DNA from: Phycisphaerae bacterium
Lineage (GTDB): Bacteria; Planctomycetota; Phycisphaerae; UBA1845
DNA length: 41,966 nucleotides
Assembly (NCBI GenBank): GCA_050050135.1
Contig: JASFUW010000001.1
Span: 1 to 41,966 of the forward strand
Direction of reading: 5' to 3'
A program made the position numbers and the translations under genes. The notes beneath the pieces were generated by a model that worked only from the letters and a program-made list of their open reading frames with translations, searched no databases and was not told the origin of the DNA. Numbering within the stretch: position 1 is the stretch's first letter; every line of letters starts with the position of its first letter. This document shows, piece after piece, positions 25,087 through 41,966 of the stretch.

Positions 25087-26886
25087 TCAGCCTTCGTCGA
25101 AAAGCAGCGCCTGCCTCGCCTTCATCAGCCCCACCAAGGCATGCTGGCAGTGGTCGATGCGCAGCGTGTTGAGCGACGGCGTCGTCCGCACACCGCCGAC
25201 CGCATCCTTCGGGCTGCGCATGAAGTACGCCTCCTCCGGACGGACCTGAAGCTGCATGACAAACCGAGCCGCCCGCCGAACCACGCCCTCATACCGCCGC
25301 ACCCGCACGGTGTCCTTCGCGACGCGCGCAAGCCTCAACGCATCCGCGAAACCTTCGAGATAAGCCGCGGTCGCCACCCCGACGCGTCCCGGCTGATACG
25401 TCGAAAACCCGCCCCAAAGCTCTGGCCAACGGCAGTTGTCTTCGTCGAGCTGCTTATCCGCAAGCCAGTCCGCAAGCTCGAAAACATACGCGACGTAATC
25501 ACCCCGCTTGCTGTGCTCCGCCATCAACGCATACGCCTGCACCTGCCACGGCACGAACGCCGGCGACCGCCGCCCACGGAAGTACTCCCGATAAAACGTG
25601 ATCGCCTCGTGAAACGCCTCCAGCACGCGCGTCGACGGGTCGAGGCGATAGTGCGCCGCCATCGCCAAAAGCGCCTCACCTGGAAAATAATCCTGCGCCC
25701 GAACCTCGACCTCCGGCAAAAACGCCGTTACGAACATCCCCGAAGGACGTTGCAACAAAAGCATCCCGTTGATCAACCGCTCCCGCGTGTCCGCGTAGGT
25801 CTCGGGCTCCGGATGTTCCGCCAGCGCCAGGCTCAAGAGCGCCGTGACCCCCAGCTTGTTTCGCCCGTCCGACGTCTCGATGAATGCCGCGTGCTCGACA
25901 TCGTCGACTTCTTTCAAACCCTGAAGGTGATAGCGGATCCCCAGATCAGCCGCCGCCTTCGACGCACTGTTGCCCGACATCCGCGCGTGCATCGCCAGCG
26001 CCACGACCGCCCCCACCTGCCGCACCAGGTTCTGATCCTCGCTGTACACGTCTCGCGACGGCTCATACTGATAGGTAAACAGCCCCGAATCGAGCTGCCG
26101 GTACACCATGTAATCCGCCAGCCGATCGATCGCTTCGTCCACCTCGCCCGGCGTCACTTCGCCCGGCTCGATCACCCTAAGCCCACGGTGCAGTGACACC
26201 ACACTGCCACCAGAATCCGATTCGTACCAATGCACCGACCGGAACCGGCTTAGCCTTACATGCCCCGTCCTCGACGGGTCCACCCGCGCTGTCTCCGCAA
26301 ACCGCCTGAGCGCGTCCGCCACCACGAGACCGCTCGTGATAATCTCGGTCGGACAGAAGCGGTGCCGCGCGCCCGCACCCACCATGTTCACACCGTGAAC
26401 GCCCGGCTCGACAAACGGCGCCACCGCTCGCGGCATGGTCCAATCACCTTCCACGGGAATCGGCTCAGCCGGGCCCACGACCTCGATTTCGACCAGCATC
26501 CGGTTCGCCAGCTCCAGGTCCAAAAGACCCTGCGCCGCCAGAACCTCCGCCGCGGTCAACGCGGCATCGCGCGTCGCGTCCGTGACCCGACCCGGTCCCG
26601 CCGCCGCCGTTCCCAGGAGGTAGCCGCGCTGTCGAAGGCGGACCACGACCTCCGCTTCGACGTTCCCGAGCGATCCCGGCGTGTACGCCGGTTCATACGT
26701 CGGACGCCCGAGCGCCCGATCCCTCACCGTCCGGCGAGCGATCCGTGACAGAAGCACGCGATGCGTTTCGCTGATCGCAGGCACCGCCGGCTCTGCCGGT
26801 TCCTCACCACGCGAGCACGGCGCGCAAACAGCGAGGCACACCAGCACAAACGGCAAGCGACCCGGCGTGAGTTTGTCCGCCAACAT
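25087..26886 (-). CDS. Secreted fusion protein: AMMECR1-like N-terminal region + alpha/alpha-toroid-like C-terminal region
   Basis: The likely start is MLADKLTPGRLPFVLVCLAVCAPC (ATG 26886..26884), which is a signal peptide. The N-region reads RIARRTVRDRALGRP...VVVRLRQRGYLLGTAAA.... The C-region is helical-repeat rich with YFPGEALLAMA. The stop lies 6 nt before the start of the GT-C-like gene. Confidence 0.4.
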   Translation of the reverse strand: MLADKLTPGRLPFVLVCLAVCAPCSRGEEPAEPAVPAISETHRVLLSRIARRTVRDRALGRPTYEPAYTPGSLGNVEAEVVVRLRQRGYLLGTAAAGPGRVTDATRDAALTAAEVLAAQGLLDLELANRMLVEIEVVGPAEPIPVEGDWTMPRAVAPFVEPGVHGVNMVGAGARHRFCPTEIITSGLVVADALRRFAETARVDPSRTGHVRLSRFRSVHWYESDSGGSVVSLHRGLRVIEPGEVTPGEVDEAIDRLADYMVYRQLDSGLFTYQYEPSRDVYSEDQNLVRQVGAVVALAMHARMSGNSASKAAADLGIRYHLQGLKEVDDVEHAAFIETSDGRNKLGVTALLSLALAEHPEPETYADTRERLINGMLLLQRPSGMFVTAFLPEVEVRAQDYFPGEALLAMAAHYRLDPSTRVLEAFHEAITFYREYFRGRRSPAFVPWQVQAYALMAEHSKRGDYVAYVFELADWLADKQLDEDNCRWPELWGGFSTYQPGRVGVATAAYLEGFADALRLARVAKDTVRVRRYEGVVRRAARFVMQLQVRPEEAYFMRSPKDAVGGVRTTPSLNTLRIDHCQHALVGLMKARQALLFDEG

Positions 26887-26946
26887 GCCGATCAGTATAG
26901 TGCTGCACAGGGTGCCCCTCAAACGGGACGCCGAAGGGAACGACCG

Positions 26947-27864
26947 ATGGCCAAAACCGAAACCGACTTTGCTGCGCCCATCATGACCGCGGCCGCCCAA
27001 GTGGCCAAAGCCGTCAAAGCTCGAGTCTTGTTCGCCTACGCACACGCCGTCGATGACGTCGCCGCACTCCAACAGTCACTCAAACCCCCGACAAAGCTCA
27101 CCCTCGTCTGCCGCGACCAACAGGACGAACAACGCGCAAAACACGCCTCCGTCGAACTCATGACCGTCCCCGCCTTCGAGCTGACGAGAATGGGGCAGAT
27201 CAAGATGGCCACCCTGATCGCCTTCACCCAAGGCCTCCTCAGAGCCGGTGACGTCTTTGTCTTTCTGACCGGCATAACCGGCCGCTCGATTGACACACTC
27301 GTGACCATGCGCGTCGGCGATGAGTTCGAGCTCTTCCAATCCGTCGGCCAACCCAAGCTCACCGAGCACATCCGCCGACCCGTCTTCGAGAAGGTCCTCC
27401 GACTCGCCATGGAACTCGCCCACGAAGGCCGCGAAGGCAAGCCCGTCGGCGCCCTGTTCGTCATCGGCGATCACCGCGAGGTCGAAAAGTCCGCCGTCGA
27501 GGGACGTATCAACCCGTTCCGTGGCTACACCGAAAAGGAACGCAACATCCAGGACGACTCCATCGACGACATCGTCAAGGAAATCGCGAAGCTCGACGGC
27601 GCATTCATACTCAAGGGCAACGGGGTAATCGTCTCCGGTTGTGCAACGTTGCGGCCCGCCATGGCTGGCAAGGAGCTGTCACAGGGGCTCGGCAGTCGTC
27701 ACGCCGCAGCCGCCGCCATCACCGCAAGCACCCACAGCATCGCCATCACCCTTTCCGAATCCACCGGCGACGTCCGCGTCTGGCGACGCGGTGAGATGAT
27801 CACCGAGATCGAAAAGGCCCCAAAGGCACTACTAGACGGAACCGTCCCTCCGCCCGTCCCATAG
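26947..27864 (+). CDS. Diadenylate cyclase, CdaZ/DacZ-type (pyruvate-kinase-C-terminal-like N-domain + DAC/DisA_N domain)
   Basis: The start is MAKTETDF at 26947. DAC motifs: GALFVIGD, DGAFILKGNG, LGSRHAAAAAIT, LSESTGDVRVW. There is no TM (CdaA) or HhH (DisA) domain. The N-terminal half (..VPAFELTRMGQIKMATLIAFTQGLLRAGDVFVFLTG..) is like that of DacZ. Confidence 0.75.
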   Translation: MAKTETDFAAPIMTAAAQVAKAVKARVLFAYAHAVDDVAALQQSLKPPTKLTLVCRDQQDEQRAKHASVELMTVPAFELTRMGQIKMATLIAFTQGLLRAGDVFVFLTGITGRSIDTLVTMRVGDEFELFQSVGQPKLTEHIRRPVFEKVLRLAMELAHEGREGKPVGALFVIGDHREVEKSAVEGRINPFRGYTEKERNIQDDSIDDIVKEIAKLDGAFILKGNGVIVSGCATLRPAMAGKELSQGLGSRHAAAAAITASTHSIAITLSESTGDVRVWRRGEMITEIEKAPKALLDGTVPPPVP

Positions 27865-34089: not shown

Positions 34090-34872
34090 ATGAGTGCCAA
34101 CGCCATCACCCGTATGACTGTAGCCGCGTTTGTGCCGAGCCTGCTGCTCGCTTTCGCATCGGGATGCGCGCCCTGCGAGGTCAACACCTGGGCGCCGAAG
34201 CCCGTGGTGCATTGGGAGCAGGTAGCGACGCAACCGGTGCAGCCGGTCGTGGATGGTTATCGGATACTGGCGGAACATCCCACACGGGCACTCTTTCCGG
34301 CGTCGATGGCTGTCACCCGCGTCTCCGTCGACCACAAGGAGCAGCGGACTCCCAGAGGCGGACCGCTTCTGATGACCGACCCGAGAAACGAGTTTCTCCA
34401 GTGGAACTCGACGCTCGACAACCAGATGGCCATCAGCGAGGTGTTCCCCATCGTGGATGACGACCTCGGCGGCGGTCAGGCCGATCCGCAGCAGATCGTC
34501 GCGGCGTTTCGAGCGCTGCACGCCGGGCTCGGATTGATCTACGCCGTGAATGAGCTCAGCCCCACCGAGTCGGAGATGTTCGGCGTACTATATGACATCA
34601 AGGCGGCACGACCGATCGCATCGTTGCACAAGGCGGCCGCATCGATTCCTCCCCCCGACGACGGAATCTGTCGGGCGGAGACACCCGACCCGTGGGTGAG
34701 CGATTCTCGGGCGTTGGTACGCGCGGAGTTCGACAAGCTGGTGCATACGGTGATTCGCGAACTCATCTTGCGCGACGAGCCGGCACCGATCGAGGTGCAG
34801 ACCGGTTGGAGGCCGCCCGCCCCGGCTCGCTCCGCCGTGTGGCCGCCACCCGCACTGGCCACGGGAAGGTAG
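34090..34872 (+). CDS. Hypothetical lipoprotein
   Basis: AAGGAA lies upstream of the ATG at 34090. The product MSANAITRMTVAAFVPSLLLAFASGC has a lipobox. The upstream 393 codons of track ORF 32911..34872 are antisense to the sugar transferase and R/P-rich. Confidence 0.5.
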   Translation: MSANAITRMTVAAFVPSLLLAFASGCAPCEVNTWAPKPVVHWEQVATQPVQPVVDGYRILAEHPTRALFPASMAVTRVSVDHKEQRTPRGGPLLMTDPRNEFLQWNSTLDNQMAISEVFPIVDDDLGGGQADPQQIVAAFRALHAGLGLIYAVNELSPTESEMFGVLYDIKAARPIASLHKAAASIPPPDDGICRAETPDPWVSDSRALVRAEFDKLVHTVIRELILRDEPAPIEVQTGWRPPAPARSAVWPPPALATGR

Positions 34873-34874
34873 TC

Positions 34875-36533
34875 GTGCATAGCGCAACCGCGCGACACGC
34901 ACCGCCTCAGATCGACCGCCTCCGCCCGATGCGAACGGCTCACACGAGCCATCCGGCGGTTCGGTTTCTTGTCCGCCGTTATGTCGAACTCCTGACGATT
35001 CTGGCACTCCTGTTTGTATTGCAGACCGGATTGGTGCCGTTCGACTTCCAGAGCGCAGCAGATCAGGTCGGCGCGGGCAACTTCTTCTCGAGCGCGACGT
35101 CGCGGCTGACTCTGCCGGACGTCATCAGCAACATCTTCCTGTATGTGCCGCTGGGCATGCTCCTGCACTGGAGTCTTGCGCGCAGGCTGCACCGGATACC
35201 GGCCACGGGCCTGATCGCCATGGCGCTGGCCGCCGCGACGAGCGGGCTCGTGGAGTGGCTTCAAGCCTACTCTGCGGCGCGGGTCTCGTCTGTTATCGAT
35301 CTTTCGAGTAATGTCATCGGCGCGGCAGTCGGCGTGTCCCTTTCGTTGACCTGCCGGCGGATCGTCCCGCAGCTTGTCGGCGCCGCGATCGCCGAGCTGC
35401 AGCACAGACCGCAGGCGCTGATGCTCAAGGCCTACTGCCTGGTGCTCGTCGTTTTCGCAGCGATTCCGTTTTCCTTCTCGTTTGACACCGTTCGCTTGAA
35501 GCAGGCGGTGAGGTCGGCGAATCTCATCCCGTTTCAGGCAATCGCCTATGACGACGCCGTCATGGCCGGACTGCTGCCGAAGTCGGCCGTCAACGCCCGC
35601 GCCCAGCTTAGATGGCTGAACATGAGGCGTTGGTCGCGTTGGACCGTCGAATGCATCTCCTTTACGGTGCTGGCGTGGCTGGCGCTGACGGTTCTTCGAG
35701 ACGACTACCGCTTCGGCACGCGGGCGAGCGTCGCATTCGTCATGTACCTCGGCGGTGCGTTCGCGCTCGCGCTGACGCTTCTGCAACTGCCGATTGTTTC
35801 GCGGGCTTGTGATGTAACCGACGTGCTCTTTCGATGGATCGGCGTGGTGCTGGGGCTCGTCGCAAGAGGTTGGTACCTTCGCCGGCTCGGGACCGGACCC
35901 GCTCGCGCGCTCGACGACTTTCATCGACGGGCCGCGAAGATCGGGATCGCGATGCTCGCGTGCTACATCTTGTACATCGGCGCCATTCCGTTCGAGTTCG
36001 GTGGTCGGGGCGGCGGCGTGAAGGCGTCGATCATGAGTGACAGTCTTCTGCCATTTTTTGCCTATTACGTGGCTCGCTTCGACCTGATGATGTCGGACGC
36101 CATGCAGAAGTTCGCCTCGTACGCCGTCTTCGCGGCGCTTCTGGCGTTTTGTTGGTCGCGCCGCGGCGACGGCAAAGTCGACGCGCGTGTGTTCGCGGTC
36201 GCCGCCGCCGGTGTGTCGCTCTCGGTTTATGTCGAGTTCGTGCAAGCGTTCATCCCGGTTCGTGTTCCAAGCCTGACCGACCCGATCCTCGCCGCGGCAG
36301 GGTGCGCGACCGGGGCGGTCCTCGTTCGCCAGGCGAGGTCCGTCTACGCGTTTTCTCAGCGTGAACCGCGTGCGATCGACATGCCTGAGCGTTCGAAGGC
36401 GCGTCACGAGGGCGCGGCGCTTCCGCGGGACGATGCGCTGATCGCCACGTTGATTGACCCCGACCCGAACGCCCCGGCCGAGCCGTCCACCTCCACCCCG
36501 CGCGTTCCCACAACGAAGAACCCCACAGTCTGA
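34875..36533 (+). CDS. Membrane protein with two VanZ-like domains
   Basis: GGAAGG lies 5 nt upstream of the GTG at 34875, which is 2 nt after the preceding stop. The first module reads ...LVPFDFQ...NIFLYVPLGMLL...EWLQAYSAARVSSVIDLSSNVIGAAVG. The second module reads ...IPFEFGG...QKFASYAVFAALL...VEFVQAFIPVRVPSLTDPILAAAGCATG. Confidence 0.55.
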   Translation: MHSATARHAPPQIDRLRPMRTAHTSHPAVRFLVRRYVELLTILALLFVLQTGLVPFDFQSAADQVGAGNFFSSATSRLTLPDVISNIFLYVPLGMLLHWSLARRLHRIPATGLIAMALAAATSGLVEWLQAYSAARVSSVIDLSSNVIGAAVGVSLSLTCRRIVPQLVGAAIAELQHRPQALMLKAYCLVLVVFAAIPFSFSFDTVRLKQAVRSANLIPFQAIAYDDAVMAGLLPKSAVNARAQLRWLNMRRWSRWTVECISFTVLAWLALTVLRDDYRFGTRASVAFVMYLGGAFALALTLLQLPIVSRACDVTDVLFRWIGVVLGLVARGWYLRRLGTGPARALDDFHRRAAKIGIAMLACYILYIGAIPFEFGGRGGGVKASIMSDSLLPFFAYYVARFDLMMSDAMQKFASYAVFAALLAFCWSRRGDGKVDARVFAVAAAGVSLSVYVEFVQAFIPVRVPSLTDPILAAAGCATGAVLVRQARSVYAFSQREPRAIDMPERSKARHEGAALPRDDALIATLIDPDPNAPAEPSTSTPRVPTTKNPTV

Positions 36534-36686: not shown

Positions 36687-36771
36687 CGCATGTGCGGGCT
36701 CGGGATGAGCGGGGCGTACGATCACGCCGCGATCGGCGGATGCGTACTGAGTGACCGACAGGAGGCACCGT

Positions 36772-37890
36772 TTGAGCAACACCATCCAGAAACTCAATGA
36801 GCGAGGACAGTCGATCTGGTGCGACGATCTGAGCCGTGAGATGATCAACTCGGGGGAGCTGCAGCGTTACTTCGAGATGGGTGTCACAGGGGTGACGTCG
36901 AACCCGACGATCTTCATGAAGGCCCTCAGTGGCGGTGACGCCTATGACGAGCTGTTCAACAAGCTCGCGAGCGAGGGCAAGACCGGGATGGAGCTTTACG
37001 AGGGCCTGGTTCTGCCCGACATCGCCGACGCGGCCGATATGCTCAGACCCGTCTACGATCGAACCGACGGACGAGACGGGTTCGTCAGTCTGGAAGTCAA
37101 TCCCAAGCTCGCCTATGACATGGAGCGGACGCTCGATGAAGCCCGCCGACTGTTCAAGACGCTCAACCGGCCGAACGTGCTGATCAAGGTTCCTGCAACC
37201 GATGAAGGCATCCCCGCGATCGAGACGCTGATCGGTGAGGGCATCAACGTGAACGTGACGCTCATCTTTTCGCTGGCGATGTACCGGCGGGTGATGGGTG
37301 CATACTCGAGCGGCCTGAAAAAGCTCGACGCCGCGGGCGGCGACCTGAGTCGTGTCGCATCCGTAGCATCGTTTTTCGTCAGCCGACTCGACACGCTCGT
37401 AGACAAGCTTCTGGCTGAAAAACATCCGCCGCATGCTGACATCTCCGATCTGCTCGGGGCGGCCGCGGTGGCCAATACGCGGCTCGCGTATGCCCTGTTC
37501 GAACAGACCTTCCGGGACGGCGGTGATTTTGCGGCACTTGCGGCCAAGGGTGCCCGCGTCCAGCGGCCTCTGTGGGCAAGCACCAGCACGAAGAACCCGG
37601 AATACCCCCCCACCAAGTACGTCGACGACCTGGTCGGGCCGGACACGGTCAACACGATCCCGCCGGATACGATCGCCGCCGTTCTGCACGGTGGCCGGAC
37701 CGAGGTCACGATCCGCCATGATCTTGCAGGTGCTCGTGCCGTCTTTGCGGCACTCGAGAAATCGGGCATCCACGTCGACGCAGCCACCGACAAGCTCAGC
37801 GTAGACGGGGTCAAGGCGTTCTCACAGTCGTTCGACGACCTCCTCGCCAACCTCGAAGCGAAGCACGAGAGGGTTCGAGCGGCGGGATAG
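36772..37890 (+). CDS. tal: Transaldolase (long, actinobacterial-type)
   Basis: GGAGG (36761-36765) lies 6 nt upstream of the in-frame TTG at 36772. The product reads LSNTIQKLNERGQSIWCDDLSRE...GVTGVTSNPTIF...FVSLEVNP...NVLIKVPAT.EG..AIE.L...GINVNVTLIFS...VASFFVSRLD.... Confidence 0.9.
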   Translation: MSNTIQKLNERGQSIWCDDLSREMINSGELQRYFEMGVTGVTSNPTIFMKALSGGDAYDELFNKLASEGKTGMELYEGLVLPDIADAADMLRPVYDRTDGRDGFVSLEVNPKLAYDMERTLDEARRLFKTLNRPNVLIKVPATDEGIPAIETLIGEGINVNVTLIFSLAMYRRVMGAYSSGLKKLDAAGGDLSRVASVASFFVSRLDTLVDKLLAEKHPPHADISDLLGAAAVANTRLAYALFEQTFRDGGDFAALAAKGARVQRPLWASTSTKNPEYPPTKYVDDLVGPDTVNTIPPDTIAAVLHGGRTEVTIRHDLAGARAVFAALEKSGIHVDAATDKLSVDGVKAFSQSFDDLLANLEAKHERVRAAG

Positions 37891-37902
37891 TAACGAGGCG
37901 GC

Positions 37903-37934
37903 GAAGCGACGGAGCGACGAAGCGACGGAGCGAC
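37903..37934. repeat. 2 x 16-nt perfect tandem repeat (gaagcgacggagcgac)
   Basis: 37903-37918 equals 37919-37934, followed by ggagggaggg. It starts 13 nt after the tal stop. Confidence 0.6.
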
Positions 37935-38359
37935 GGAGGGAGGGATGGAAGGACGTAGGGAATGGGAGCCCGGCGCGCCGGGGAAGGCTCCGGGGCAAAA
38001 GTCGGGCCCGTGTCGCAGGCGAAGCCACGGGGAACGGCGTTTTTGATAGCGCCAGTGCGGGTTTTTGGGTTGGTTCTGTCACTTTTTTTGTGCATTTCTT
38101 TTTCTCTTCCCGCTCCGGGGGTCGGCCACGCGGCATTCGGCACGCACAAACTGTGCGCGCAGGACCGCCATCCGGTCCAGGAGAATAACTTCAGGGGTGA
38201 TCGGTGGCTCGAGTCGCGAGTAGGAATACGAGCCATCGGGCGCCAGCGGTGGCATTCGCCAGTCTGTGTCGTCGCAATGCGCCGCGGGACCCGGGCGATT
38301 GATATCCCTTTAGAATTCGGCTGCACCCAGCGCGGTACGCCAACGCCCGGAGTAGGAGC

Positions 38360-38387
38360 TTGACTCGTTAAAGCTCGATGGGATAAT
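38360..38387 (+). promoter_or_regulatory. Sigma70-like promoter candidate for the Cys-tail gene at 38530
   Basis: TTGACT (38360-38365), a 16-nt spacer, then GATAAT (38382-38387). It lies about 140 nt upstream of the ATG at 38530. Confidence 0.3.
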
Positions 38388-38529
38388 CGTTCGCCGATCG
38401 CCTAAGAACCGCTTGGCTGTTTTCATTGATGTTTTACGAATGGCGAGCCGAGCATGTCGGTCTCGCGGGCGCGGAGCGGCGTGAGGTCGCGCAAACAAGA
38501 CGGGCGTCTTCAATTCGCGGCAGGTAGCG

Positions 38530-39626
38530 ATGGCAAACGACAAAAGGCACCGACCGGAAGACGGGCCAACAGCCCGCGAGATACTCGGGCACACTGGGGC
38601 AGTGTTCGTCGTCTTCTGTGGGATCTATGCATGCGCGAATCTACTCGGGCACATCGTCGCGGCCAGCGAGGGTGTGGGCGCCGACCCCGTTGAGGTCGCA
38701 CTAGCAACAGTCGTAATCAAGTGCATAATCGCGCTCGATTGGATACTCCTCGTGGCATACGTTGCCCACAGTTTCCTGCGCTTGGCCAAACGGTTCGTCC
38801 CAGAGACCGTGGCGCTATACCTCACTGGACTTCTGCGGATCGTGCGACGGTCAGGCGACCACGAAAACGACCGGGGTCGCGCGCGGCCACGGTGGCGGAT
38901 CCGAGCCTTCGGCGCCATTGGGAGCCTCGTGGTTGTTGCGCTATACCTGACTGGATCCGCACTACTAGCGCCGCGCGAATGGACGTTGCTTTTTGACGGG
39001 CTGGGAAGCGTGTTCGAGACAGTTCACGGTCACGTCGTTTTCAGGCCGGGATTGCAATCGGACCGAATCTGGATGGGCTTTAAGGTTGGGGGCCCGATAG
39101 GTAGGCCCGTCGGCGCCGATGTTGGACAGACGGATCCCCTTGATACATCCGGTCGCGTCACCGTCTGGTGTAACACCGACAGACGAGAGCTGCGAATCAC
39201 GGCGACAAATAACGACGGGACCCCGATAACCCGCGCATATACCATCTACGACCCGAGTTGGGCAGTACGCACGAGCTTTCAAGAGTACCTGCAGCGGTTC
39301 GAGGAGCATATGCGAGGGGACGGCGGATCAGGACCAACGCGCAAACGGGGTGCCCAGGCGGCGGGGAGTGCTTCTGCCCGGCAAGCGGCGCGGAGGGGAT
39401 TTGCTGCCCTGAGACGACCGTTCCCTATGCGGACTGCGCGGCCCCCGGCGGGTGTCGCTGTGCCTGTTTGGCCGTTTGGCCACCAGCCCCCGACGGGGGC
39501 GTGAAAGTGTCCGAGGCTCGGAATTGCGGCCTCGGACTGGAGTCGTGCAAGATCCGTTGCCCTCCGGGCCATGCTCCGGGGTGTGCGTGCGACGAAAGAA
39601 AATGTTGGGGCGTCTGCATGAGATAG
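38530..39626 (+). pseudogene. Multi-pass membrane protein with unassigned middle domain and cysteine-cluster tail; the reading frame is broken between 39328 and 39350 (frameshift or assembly error)
   Basis: ORF 38530..39504 has 4 TM helices and a domain homologous to that of 40116..40790 up to ...EEHMRGDGG, after which it becomes low-complexity. The homologous Cys-rich tail (CPGGGECFCPASGAEGICCPE...GGCRCAC..., 16 Cys in 91 aa) is in the -1 frame (39351..39626). Confidence 0.5.
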
Positions 39627-39960
39627 TAGAATCCGCCCGGTCGAGCTCTGCCACGCACACCTGTTCGTCCGAAAATGGAAGGGTTTGCAGCCCTGAAACA
39701 GCGGGTTCCGCATCTTCGCGCCACCGGATGCCGACGAGTGGGCTGGAGCACGATGTCGCCGTTCCCGAGCGATCAGGAGTTGAGTTTTCACAAGCGGAAA
39801 GGGCAATACTATTTTTCTCGGAATTCTGTTGACACGTGGGCCTCAGGTTGTGACGATAAATCAAGTCGGACTTTGGACGACGCAAGGCCCTTTCATTTTT
39901 TTGGAGCCGGGGGCGGCGAACGCCGTCAATCTTTGCAAGTTTGAGTCAATTAGCACTGTT

Positions 39961-40041
39961 GGAGCGCGTGTGCCGAAGCGCTCCATGAGGCCGCGCTGAG
40001 GCGTTGAGCCGCTACCGGTCATATTCATGTGCCGAAGCATG
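39961..40041 (+). promoter_or_regulatory. Two copies of TGTGCCGAAGC, each inside a hairpin, upstream of 40116
   Basis: Copies at 39969-39979 and 40028-40038. Hairpin 1 is GGAGCGC(39961-39967)/GCGCTCC(39978-39984). Hairpin 2 is CATG(40026-40029)/CATG(40038-40041). Confidence 0.3.
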
Positions 40042-40115
40042 CAAGCTAGTCGCATAGTCATTACGGAGGGGCGACCGAGCCATAACAAAACCCACATCAT
40101 CCGGAGGCAAACAAA

Positions 40116-40790
40116 ATGATGATCAGGCAGCCAGTTGCGTACGCCATCTCGGGGCTTCTTTTGCCACTTGCTGCGTTTGTCGTATACGTAGGCCAGACGG
40201 GCGTCAAGGCCGAAAGGGACCGCGCGCGGATCGCGAAGGTCCCAGTAAGGTGGACCTCAGTGGAACCATACGCCTACGAAGGGCCCGCCACGTTCTATGA
40301 AAGGCCCGATGGTATGATCGTGTTCAGTCGGGGGCCAACGGTTTTGCCTCTTACAATCGGCTTCGACCTCCATCTGCAGTGGGATGAGGAAACGGCGGCT
40401 GCGGCGATGGATGGGAGCCTTGAGCTCAGGGACGTTTCCGCCTGGATGAGCATTGAATACGACGACAAGACGTCATCATTATTTCTGAGCTTTGTAGATG
40501 ATGCAGGCGTTCAGCAAGAACTCGCGTACAAGGTTGGTCCGCATAGCGACACCGCCGAGGCGCAAACCGCTTTTGACGCGCATCTCCGCATGTTGTTCGA
40601 CTATATGAACGGCGGGGATCTTATCGGCGAGAATGACGCGACCTACAAGACATGCTCATCTGGATCTTGTTCCTGTGCTGGTCCGGGATGTTCCTGCTCT
40701 GCCTGTTGCCTTGGTGAGGGCCTGATTCCGGAGTGCGACTGCAACCCCGAACGTTGCAGGTGTACCTGTATAAGAGCCCAGAGCTGCTAG
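40116..40790 (+). CDS. Single-pass membrane-anchored protein with unassigned domain and C-terminal cysteine cluster (13 Cys in the last 45 aa)
   Basis: GGAGG (40103-40107) lies 8 nt upstream of the ATG. The N-terminal TM is VAYAISGLLLPLAAFVVYV. The C-terminus is CSSGSCSCAGPGCSCSACCLGEGLIPECDCNPERCRCTCIRAQSC. Confidence 0.65.
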   Translation: MMIRQPVAYAISGLLLPLAAFVVYVGQTGVKAERDRARIAKVPVRWTSVEPYAYEGPATFYERPDGMIVFSRGPTVLPLTIGFDLHLQWDEETAAAAMDGSLELRDVSAWMSIEYDDKTSSLFLSFVDDAGVQQELAYKVGPHSDTAEAQTAFDAHLRMLFDYMNGGDLIGENDATYKTCSSGSCSCAGPGCSCSACCLGEGLIPECDCNPERCRCTCIRAQSC

Positions 40791-40865: not shown

Positions 40866-41966
40866 TCACGCGTCGTCGGGAACGACGTCGATGTCAGTCA
40901 GTGGCACTTCTAGGTCGATGGCGCCGGAGGTGACTAAGGCCTTTTGTTTGTGGAGCTGCATGCGGACGACTTTGCCGGGTTTTCGCAGCGGTTTGATGTA
41001 GACCTCGTCGCCCGGTTGCAGGTCGTTGACCCAATGGGTCCACTCCTCGAAGGCCTGGGTGGATTCGCGGAGGCGCTCGCGGTCTTTTTCCAGGCGCTGT
41101 CGCTCGTGCCTGGCCTCGATGGCGGCGTCGCGGGCGGCTTTGCGGGCGGCTTCGGCTTCGCGGCGTGAATGCAACGTGCCGGCGATGGCCCGGCTCAAGG
41201 CACGCGTTCGGTTCGAAAGAACGCTCTTCGCAACGCTGACCAGGCGAGAAGGCATGCCCAGGCGTTGGGCGATGATCAGGGCGTTGCTGTTGCCCGGTTC
41301 GCCCATGCGCACACGGAAGGTGGGTTCGAGGGACTCAGGGTCGAACTCGACGGCCGCGTTGTCCACGCGTTCGGTCGTGAAGGCCGTGGCTTTCAACGCG
41401 GAAAGGTGCGTGGTCACGATCGCCTTGGCCTTCAGCGTCAACAGCTCGGAGATGACGGCTTCGCCGATGGCTGCCCCTTCGTCGGGGTCGGTGCCGGCGC
41501 CCAGCTCGTCGATCAACACGAGCGACTTCGGACCGCTGTGCCGCATGATGTCGAGCAAGGTGCCGAGGTGGGAACTGAAGGTGCTGAGCGACTGCTGCAA
41601 GCTCTGCTCATCGCCGACGTCGATGAACACCTGACGGTAGGTCGGCACGCGCGAGCCCTCGCCGGCGGGGACCGGAACACCGCACTGGGCCATCATGGTG
41701 AACAGGCCGACGGTCTTCAAGGTGACCGTCTTGCCGCCGGTGTTCGGGCCGGTGACAACCAGCACATCGAAGTCCTCGCCGAGCCGAATGTCGATGGGGA
41801 CGACCTCGCGGAACGGTTTGCCGTCGTTGGCGTCGCGCTCGAAGACCTCGATCAACAAGGGGTGGCGCGCTTCGTGCAGATCGAGAACGCCGGTTTCGTC
41901 GATTTCCGGGCAGACGCAGGACCGCTTCCTGGCATAGCGGCACTTGGCGGCGATCAGGTCGAGTGC
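40866..41966 (-). CDS. mutS2: Endonuclease MutS2 (5' end beyond window), ending without a Smr domain
   Basis: The frame stays open upstream of track ORF 40866..41858, to the window edge. Walker A is TGPNTGGKTVTLKTVG and Walker B is LVLIDELGAGTDP. A coiled coil and a KOW-like segment (PGDEVYIKPLRKPGKVVRM...) follow, and the stop comes about 20 codons later. Confidence 0.85.
   Translation of the reverse strand, partial: ALDLIAAKCRYARKRSCVCPEIDETGVLDLHEARHPLLIEVFERDANDGKPFREVVPIDIRLGEDFDVLVVTGPNTGGKTVTLKTVGLFTMMAQCGVPVPAGEGSRVPTYRQVFIDVGDEQSLQQSLSTFSSHLGTLLDIMRHSGPKSLVLIDELGAGTDPDEGAAIGEAVISELLTLKAKAIVTTHLSALKATAFTTERVDNAAVEFDPESLEPTFRVRMGEPGNSNALIIAQRLGMPSRLVSVAKSVLSNRTRALSRAIAGTLHSRREAEAARKAARDAAIEARHERQRLEKDRERLRESTQAFEEWTHWVNDLQPGDEVYIKPLRKPGKVVRMQLHKQKALVTSGAIDLEVPLTDIDVVPDDA

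Follow-up and report, generated by a model that had tools for sequence, protein, structure and literature searches.

Protegrin and tachyplesin are β-hairpin peptides with cross-strand disulfide ladders and a CxC-x4-CxC spacing of cysteine (Cys). The metal-thiolate clusters of metallothioneins, such as M3Cys9 and M4Cys11, place no constraint of parity or of paired change on their Cys. Phycisphaerae and chlamydiae are members of the same PVC superphylum, and the envelopes of Phycisphaerae and Planctomycetota are poorly understood. The granulin/epithelin module is a secreted unit of ~45 amino acids (aa) with ~12 Cys, folded as a disulfide-pinned β-hairpin stack (PMC7463432), and chlamydial envelope proteins cross-link covalently via CxCxC, CC and CxxC clusters (PMC2878342). 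Two Cys-rich plus-strand genes, designated P1 and P2, were found between the transaldolase gene (tal) and mutS2 of a Phycisphaerae metagenome-assembled genome (MAG; GCA_050050135.1). The window analysed is the entire 41,966-bp contig on which they lie (JASFUW010000001.1). P1 and P2 are true, diverged paralogs of one rare, previously uncatalogued family, and we hold with moderate confidence that this is an exported, disulfide-stabilized family with a non-enzymatic binding or structural role.

The paralogy of the two genes, proposed in a first-pass annotation of the window, was borne out by BLASTP, by shuffled controls and by a hidden Markov model (HMM) of outside relatives. Frame-corrected P1 aligned to P2 with E=9e-9 over 197 collinear aa. 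For the domain alone the alignment gave z=6.9, and none of 2000 composition-preserving shuffles reached the score; for the tail alone the value was z=3.7, and 8 of 2000 shuffles reached it. The HMM, built from 27 outside relatives only, scored P2 at 161 bits, intact P1 at 108 bits and the in-frame window open reading frame (ORF) of P1 at 56 bits, while 400 shuffles scored with the same model all gave 3 bits or less. Counted from the first Cys, both tails place CC at positions 18-19 and CxCxC at positions 35-39, as the annotation had read them, and its ORF positions, quoted peptide strings and counts were all correct. The final 45 aa of P2 contain 13 Cys, the last of which is C224 (40785-40787), and the P1 tail contains 16 Cys in 91 aa, with one further Cys, C214 (nt 39169-39171), lying outside it.

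At a threshold of E<=1e-3, an exhaustive profile search over 1.84 billion representative proteins returned 31 proteins; of these, 19 also passed E<=1e-10, and one, a repeat protein, is unrelated. Word-indexed searches returned two relatives of P2 and none of P1, with no other P1-like sequence found in 5.8e9 proteins. All true members, which are about 160-370 aa long, have a hydrophobic N-terminus, a low-complexity spacer, a domain of ~115 aa, a variable linker and a terminal Cys module. The domain carries the motifs L-x-Y-x-G-x-G, G-x-L-V-F-S-P-G, G-F-D-L, G-W-x4-Y-D, L-x-V-x-A-x-D-x-x-G and F-F-x-Y-M. With an HMM built without them, both P1 and P2 fell within the family as defined by a YEGPG / VFSPG / GFDL / GW..YD / FFxYM domain followed by a terminal Cys module ending in CxCxC. 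The annotation had been unable to place the domain in a described family, and database searches agreed. Pfam gave no consistent family for either protein, for the isolated tails or for the 31 members, NCBIfam and PADLOC scans gave no match for the family, and a search of PDB sequences with the whole-protein profile gave chance-level matches only (legume lectin, E=0.55). The tail profile matched no PDB chain at E<=10, and no description of the Cys module was found in the literature searched. The result is a previously uncatalogued family of ~30 clusters, absent from Pfam and NCBIfam. Nearly all of the clusters are singletons found on one to three contigs, and the two taxon-labelled members, P2 and a protein from a second Phycisphaerae MAG (P0013), are both from Phycisphaerae. 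A hand-made degenerate pattern recovered one true member (L014, Phycisphaerae) among nine genome matches and none among 19 metagenome matches, and the A1 scan of metagenome and genome contig collections gave no match.

The Cys module spans ~40 aa and typically has 12 Cys, in the canonical pattern C-x4-C-x-C-x4-C-x-C-x2-CC-x7-C-x-C-x4-C-x-C-x-C, and its register is kept in the homologs, as the annotation would have required. Tails across the family contain 8-16 Cys, and the number is even (8, 10, 12 or 16) in 27 of 30 (naive binomial p=4e-6). A hand count of distinct Cys patterns gave about 14 even out of 17, for which we estimate p ~0.006. The mature domain is nearly free of Cys. Individual positions change together: C1 and C6 are missing jointly in nine sequences and C1 is never missing alone, loss of C5 is coupled to a new Cys (C8') two residues before C8 (phi -0.76), and loss of C11 is coupled to a new Cys beside C2 (phi -0.80). 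From this co-variation the expected pairs would be C1-C6 and possibly C4-C12, with C8-C11 and C9-C10 across strands. The loop between the final two CxC pairs is 2 to 5 residues long, depending on the member, as expected for a hairpin loop. Even parity and paired relocation are the behaviour of disulfide partners, and on that ground the tail is read as a double hairpin that would lie outside the cytoplasm, be stitched by disulfides and pack against the domain.

The mature part of P2 (residues 42-224) was modelled with AlphaFold2 (AF2) from a 31-sequence alignment, which gave a mean predicted local distance difference test score (pLDDT) of 90.6 and a predicted template modelling score (pTM) of 0.85; with only four sequences the pLDDT was 38.9 and the model was useless. 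The domain is predicted to fold as β-β-β-α-β-β-β-α, and confidence falls to a pLDDT of ~65 in the linker. The tail (pLDDT ~95) is predicted as four strands in two hairpins, at residues 184-189/192-197 and 203-210/213-220, each of which bears CxC-x4-CxC, and the strand limits of the second hairpin would place C207 opposite C216 and C209 opposite C214. The pTM of 0.85 suggests that the tail is packed against the domain as a single unit. Foldseek found no neighbour at E<=0.001 in PDB (best 0.064, TM score ~0.2) or in BFVD (best 0.025, TM score ~0.2), and the domain fold, a high-confidence prediction without a structural neighbour, is predicted to be novel. The only well-conserved polar residues of the domain are four Asp (65-77 % by column conservation), and no His, Ser, Lys, Arg or Glu is conserved. 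Because residues of catalytic type are not conserved, a non-enzymatic binding or structural role is the most economical guess.

Family proteins are probably exported, judged from their N-terminal sequences. A typical N-terminus has 1-5 K/R followed by 14-22 uncharged residues and a small-x-small site, often with Q after it (for example AVA before QE, LNA before QS and GYA before AQ). The rule of net charge difference between the flanks placed 15 members N-in and two N-out (P2 and P0021), with eight ties. P0007 has eight K/R before its hydrophobic segment and one after, and in P1 the loop at residues 83-125, ahead of the last hydrophobic segment, has 12 K/R (counted off the sequence), so both are unambiguous cases of a domain outside; for P1 the positive-inside rule would give an N-in topology with the domain out. 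The description of both proteins as membrane-anchored in the first-pass annotation holds for P1, which has three hydrophobic segments, but not securely for P2, in which the single N-terminal segment may be a signal peptide and is ambiguous (flank net charge 2 vs 3, poor -1 residue). A 21-nt direct repeat in P1 (38809-38829 and 38935-38955, 90 % identical) encodes VALYLTG twice, a sign that a membrane segment may have been duplicated internally.

P1 is the most diverged member of the family, with 22-31 % identity to any relative, and is without the GFDL, GW and YD motifs. In the window its Cys tail lies out of frame. The same locus on a metagenome contig from JGI (3300042731) encodes an intact P1 of 370 aa (P0005), which matches the window protein exactly to either side of the junction and whose gene has 16 extra nucleotides there, reading ...HMRGGRTQRVRRIRTNAQTGC... 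A Logan contig (L003) starts exactly at the junction, reading GGGTACGG vs GGGGACGG in the window, and agrees with the intact allele. The window therefore carries a 16-nt deletion, and a programmed frameshift in P1, considered as a candidate, is ruled out, since the intact allele differs by a 16-nt indel. The deletion may be genuine, giving a null or truncated allele, or it may be an error of assembly at a break in the graph. The tail frame remains open for 105 codons after the shift. The coordinates of P1, P2 and the features around them are given in Table 1.

Table 1. Coordinates of P1, P2 and flanking features in the 41,966-bp window
Feature	Position	Strand	Basis or remark
Transaldolase (tal)	36751..37890		
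Sigma-70-like promoter match, TTGACT-16-GATAAT with TG, 143 nt 5' of the P1 start codon	38360..38387	+	Consensus scan, pattern match only
P1 ORF, first frame, 324 aa	38530..39504	+	
P1 first-frame portion, residues 1-263	38530..39318	+	Matches intact allele P0005 exactly up to ...EEHMRG
P1 membrane module, hydrophobic segments at about residues 22-45, 55-82 and 126-148	38593..38973	+	Hydropathy
P1 copy of the family domain	38974..39318	+	
P1 Cys-rich reading frame, +2 relative to the first ORF	39258..39626	+	
P1 16-nt deletion site, moving the Cys tail into the +2 frame	about 39316..39322	+	Comparison with intact allele
P1 Cys module 1, frame +2	39351..39467	+	9 of 12 canonical Cys; C4, C5 and C8 absent
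P1 C-terminal extension, 7 further Cys and stop codon; weak, partial second copy of the Cys module	39468..39626	+	Second HMM stretch, 8.9 bits
Spacer between P1 and P2, 489 nt	39627..40115		GC 0.556
P2, intact 224-aa family member	40116..40790	+	NCBI PVI86_00135, 'hypothetical protein', Phycisphaerae MAG
P2 N-terminal hydrophobic segment, residues 5-28	40128..40199	+	Signal peptide or signal anchor
P2 family domain, residues 50-166, predicted βββα-βββα	40263..40613	+	AF2 pLDDT 91-97, column conservation; motifs YEGPG, VFSxG, GFDL, GW..YD, FxYM
P2 linker	40614..40652	+	Length and composition vary across the family; pLDDT ~65
P2 Cys module, 12 canonical Cys and a 13th as last residue	40653..40787	+	Two predicted β-hairpins, each CxC-x4-CxC
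mutS2, cut by contig end	40866-41966	-	Frame open to base 41966

The spacers on either side of P1 are unusually long (639 nt at 37891-38529 and 489 nt at 39627-40115), and Rfam and tRNA scans of the spacers gave no match. The second contains a weak promoter-like match at 39787-39815 and GGAGG 8 nt ahead of the P2 start codon. Within the first, a 133-aa ORF at 37962-38363 was called by JGI, has no family match and looks non-coding, and about six tandem copies of an 8-nt unit, ACGRAGCG, lie at 37893-37940, immediately 3' of the transaldolase stop codon. The annotation had noted a lower GC content in this segment by eye, and the drop is real but modest (0.566 in P2 and 0.556 in the spacer upstream of it, vs 0.628 for the contig); GC at third codon positions is 0.64-0.67 in the P1/P2 pair vs 0.77-0.84 in tal and mutS2. 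The mutS2 gene had been described as truncated-looking, an appearance that comes from the end of the contig rather than from N-terminal loss. Of the 790 profile positions of TIGR01069, its best-scoring stretch reaches position 567; another stretch also matches, and the JGI call has MutS_V and MSSS only; from the end of the match and the JGI domains, the C-terminal Smr domain may be missing. Elsewhere on the contig, a large membrane protein of 613 aa (34692-36533) carries three VanZ-like stretches, a long antisense ORF (34539-36407) without a Pfam match overlaps this gene, and a diadenylate cyclase with a DAC domain and a DacZ_P sensor domain is encoded upstream at 26761-27864.

The annotation had put the two genes forward as a candidate system, but members of the family are mostly single genes in unrelated housekeeping neighbourhoods. 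Tandem pairs occur only in the window and at L007, two of the seven loci with enough flanking sequence, and at L007 the membrane-anchored P0007 lies upstream, with the signal-peptide-bearing P0006 ~900 nt downstream. Neighbours differ from locus to locus, with transaldolase and mutS2 in the window, aldehyde dehydrogenase at L001, HNH and SIS genes at L005, HtrA-like PDZ proteases at L010, TsaD and YidC at L013, and AccD and Rpe at L014. At L010 the family member P0014 sits between two PDZ-containing genes (L010 3-1058, 1263-1994 and 2036-3247), and the downstream neighbour, 42 nt away, encodes an HtrA-like periplasmic protease with Trypsin_2 and PDZ domains. At L007 an ORF with two or three transmembrane segments (1158-1505) shares 29 nt, in a different frame, with the start of P0007 (1477-2217). 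It may be what a P1-like membrane fusion has become after being split or frameshifted, and it has no sequence similarity to the P1 membrane module.

Under the reading that we favour, the N-terminus would be a Sec signal peptide or an N-in membrane anchor, elaborated in P1 as a three-segment membrane module. The Cys module would fold outside the cytoplasm as two β-hairpins held by about six intramolecular disulfides and would pack on the α/β domain (~115 aa, βββα-βββα), where its task would be to stiffen a periplasmic or cell-envelope protein that acts in binding or structure and not as an enzyme; it would not serve to store metal. P1 would be the membrane-tethered version of this protein, and P2 a soluble or loosely anchored version. 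The population to which this genome belongs would also hold the intact 370-aa P1 allele.

The first-pass annotation had called the tails metallothionein-like, and as such they would be tethered metal-thiolate clusters that buffer or sense Cu(I), Zn, Cd or Hg, either in the cytoplasm behind an N-out anchor or in the periplasm. The tails are 27-29 % Cys with CxC, CC and CxCxC motifs, and the P2 tail has few aromatic residues, all of which agrees with a metal cluster. So do the flank charges, by which P2 and P0021 are N-out and eight members tie, and the raw K/R counts, which favour C-in for 15 of 24 members, P2 included, these being more basic after the hydrophobic segment than before it. The raw counts and the N-out call for P2 by net charge leave room for a cytoplasmic location, and hence for metal binding, and they weigh against the disulfide reading together with several other points. 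Topology was judged by flank-charge heuristics, and the Cys number is odd in P2 (13), P0012 (9) and P0023 (9). AF2 predicts metal sites confidently even when metal is absent from the model, a role in binding or structure is put forward from the absence of catalytic signatures, and gene context gave neither a functional clue nor evidence for a multi-gene system. The metal cluster itself is opposed by other observations: no metallothionein model or PDB chain was matched at E<=10, the Cys number is strongly biased to even values and Cys disappear or move two at a time, conserved His ligands are absent, and ordered β-hairpins are predicted rather than a loop-rich, metal-wrapped fold. No metal-resistance or transport genes lie near any member in the neighbourhoods scanned, the N-termini are signal-peptide-like, and the unambiguous anchors of P0007 and P1 put the domain outside. 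These sequence and model features indicate that disulfides in an exported protein fit the tail better than a metal-thiolate sponge does; we regard the metal cluster as unlikely, and the metallothionein-like label was not upheld. Still less probable, in our estimate, is an extracytoplasmic Cys cluster of a new kind, a metal-thiolate or redox-active centre between the CxC hairpins, with the membrane-tethered P1 and the soluble P2, each odd in its count of exported Cys, as a disulfide-linked sensor or relay pair specific to Phycisphaerae, built on a fold without a known structural relative.

The Cys tail could also be a handle for intermolecular cross-linking in a disulfide-bonded envelope network, in which P1 and P2 may be linked to each other. 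Chlamydial envelope proteins set a precedent for CxCxC/CC clusters used in this way (PMC2878342), and Phycisphaerae lie in the same superphylum. In each of P1 and P2 the exported Cys add up to an odd number (16 plus C214 in the former, 13 in the latter), which would leave each protein with one free thiol, a count that fits a single intermolecular disulfide. The family is not related in sequence to the Omc families, though, the even parity and the confident compact fold favour intramolecular pairing for most Cys, and the members are rare singletons rather than abundant envelope components. We give cross-linking only a slim chance. Very improbable is the proposal that the proteins are precursors of ribosomally synthesized and post-translationally modified peptides (RiPP) or bacteriocins, with the domain as a large leader and the tail as a core cut after the GG of YMNGG. 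A GG does precede the Cys-rich C-terminus in P1, P2, P0002 and P0003, and the CxC-x4-CxC spacing recalls β-hairpin antimicrobial peptides such as protegrin and tachyplesin; the GG is confined to the P1/P2 subgroup, however, and is replaced elsewhere in the family, the members have Sec-type N-termini, and the pTM suggests a tail packed on the domain as one unit. The annotation had reported no RiPP maturase nearby, and the scan agreed, with no radical-SAM, Lan or YcaO gene among the window neighbours scanned. More widely, no maturase, C39 peptidase or ABC exporter was found near any member in the neighbourhoods scanned, and no RiPP maturase or C39-peptidase exporter at L001, L005, L007, L008, L010, L013 or L014. 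The alternative to which we give most weight, while still thinking it less probable than the favoured reading, concerns P1 alone. P1 is either neofunctionalized or decaying, and as a decaying duplicate it would be a pseudogene in this genome, with P2 the sole functional copy. The deletion in the window takes away the Cys tail, P1 has the greatest divergence in the family, three canonical Cys and the GFDL, GW and YD motifs are gone, and a second P1-like sequence was not found in the 5.8e9 proteins. Set against this are the open 370-aa frame in another assembly, with which a third assembly concurs at the junction, the 105 codons of tail frame still open past the shift, and the deletion itself, which could be an assembly artefact because L003 breaks at exactly that point.

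A lineage-restricted, exported, disulfide-rich protein is a reasonable candidate for an envelope component, and use as a compact tag for stabilization is conceivable for the Cys module. The family is rare, and its present value is as a catalogue entry and a target for structural genomics.

Among described systems, the metallothioneins (bacterial SmtA/BmtA and MymT) resemble the tails in their ~28 % Cys and their CxC and CC motifs. They differ in being small, free cytosolic polypeptides, whereas here a folded domain of ~115 aa stands behind a signal peptide or anchor, no metallothionein model is matched, the Cys are even in number and change in pairs, and regular β-hairpins are predicted. The Cys clusters of chlamydial OmcA, OmcB and porin have in common with the family that they occur in exported proteins of PVC bacteria and contain CxCxC and CC (PMC2878342). 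The chlamydial proteins cross-link between molecules, whereas in the family the parity and the compact model favour pairing within the molecule; none of the 31 members has a Pfam match, and thus none belongs to the Chlam_OMP families. Protegrin and tachyplesin share the CxC-x4-CxC spacing, which occurs twice in the family tail, but are free cationic animal peptides, whereas the family hairpins are part of a larger protein and have a putative connectivity. The granulin hairpin stack, too, has ~12 Cys in a secreted module, with disulfide-pinned β-hairpins; for the family module, itself probably exported, two hairpins are predicted (AF2, pLDDT ~95). Granulin has four CC pairs and the family module only one, and the family further differs in its bacterial host, in the position of the module, always C-terminal to one particular domain, and in having no sequence match to a PDB chain. 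With its different Cys pattern and no match in sequence, the family lies outside the granulin and protegrin families, but by analogy its module would work most like these secreted disulfide-rich hairpin modules, the granulin stack and the protegrin-type ladders.

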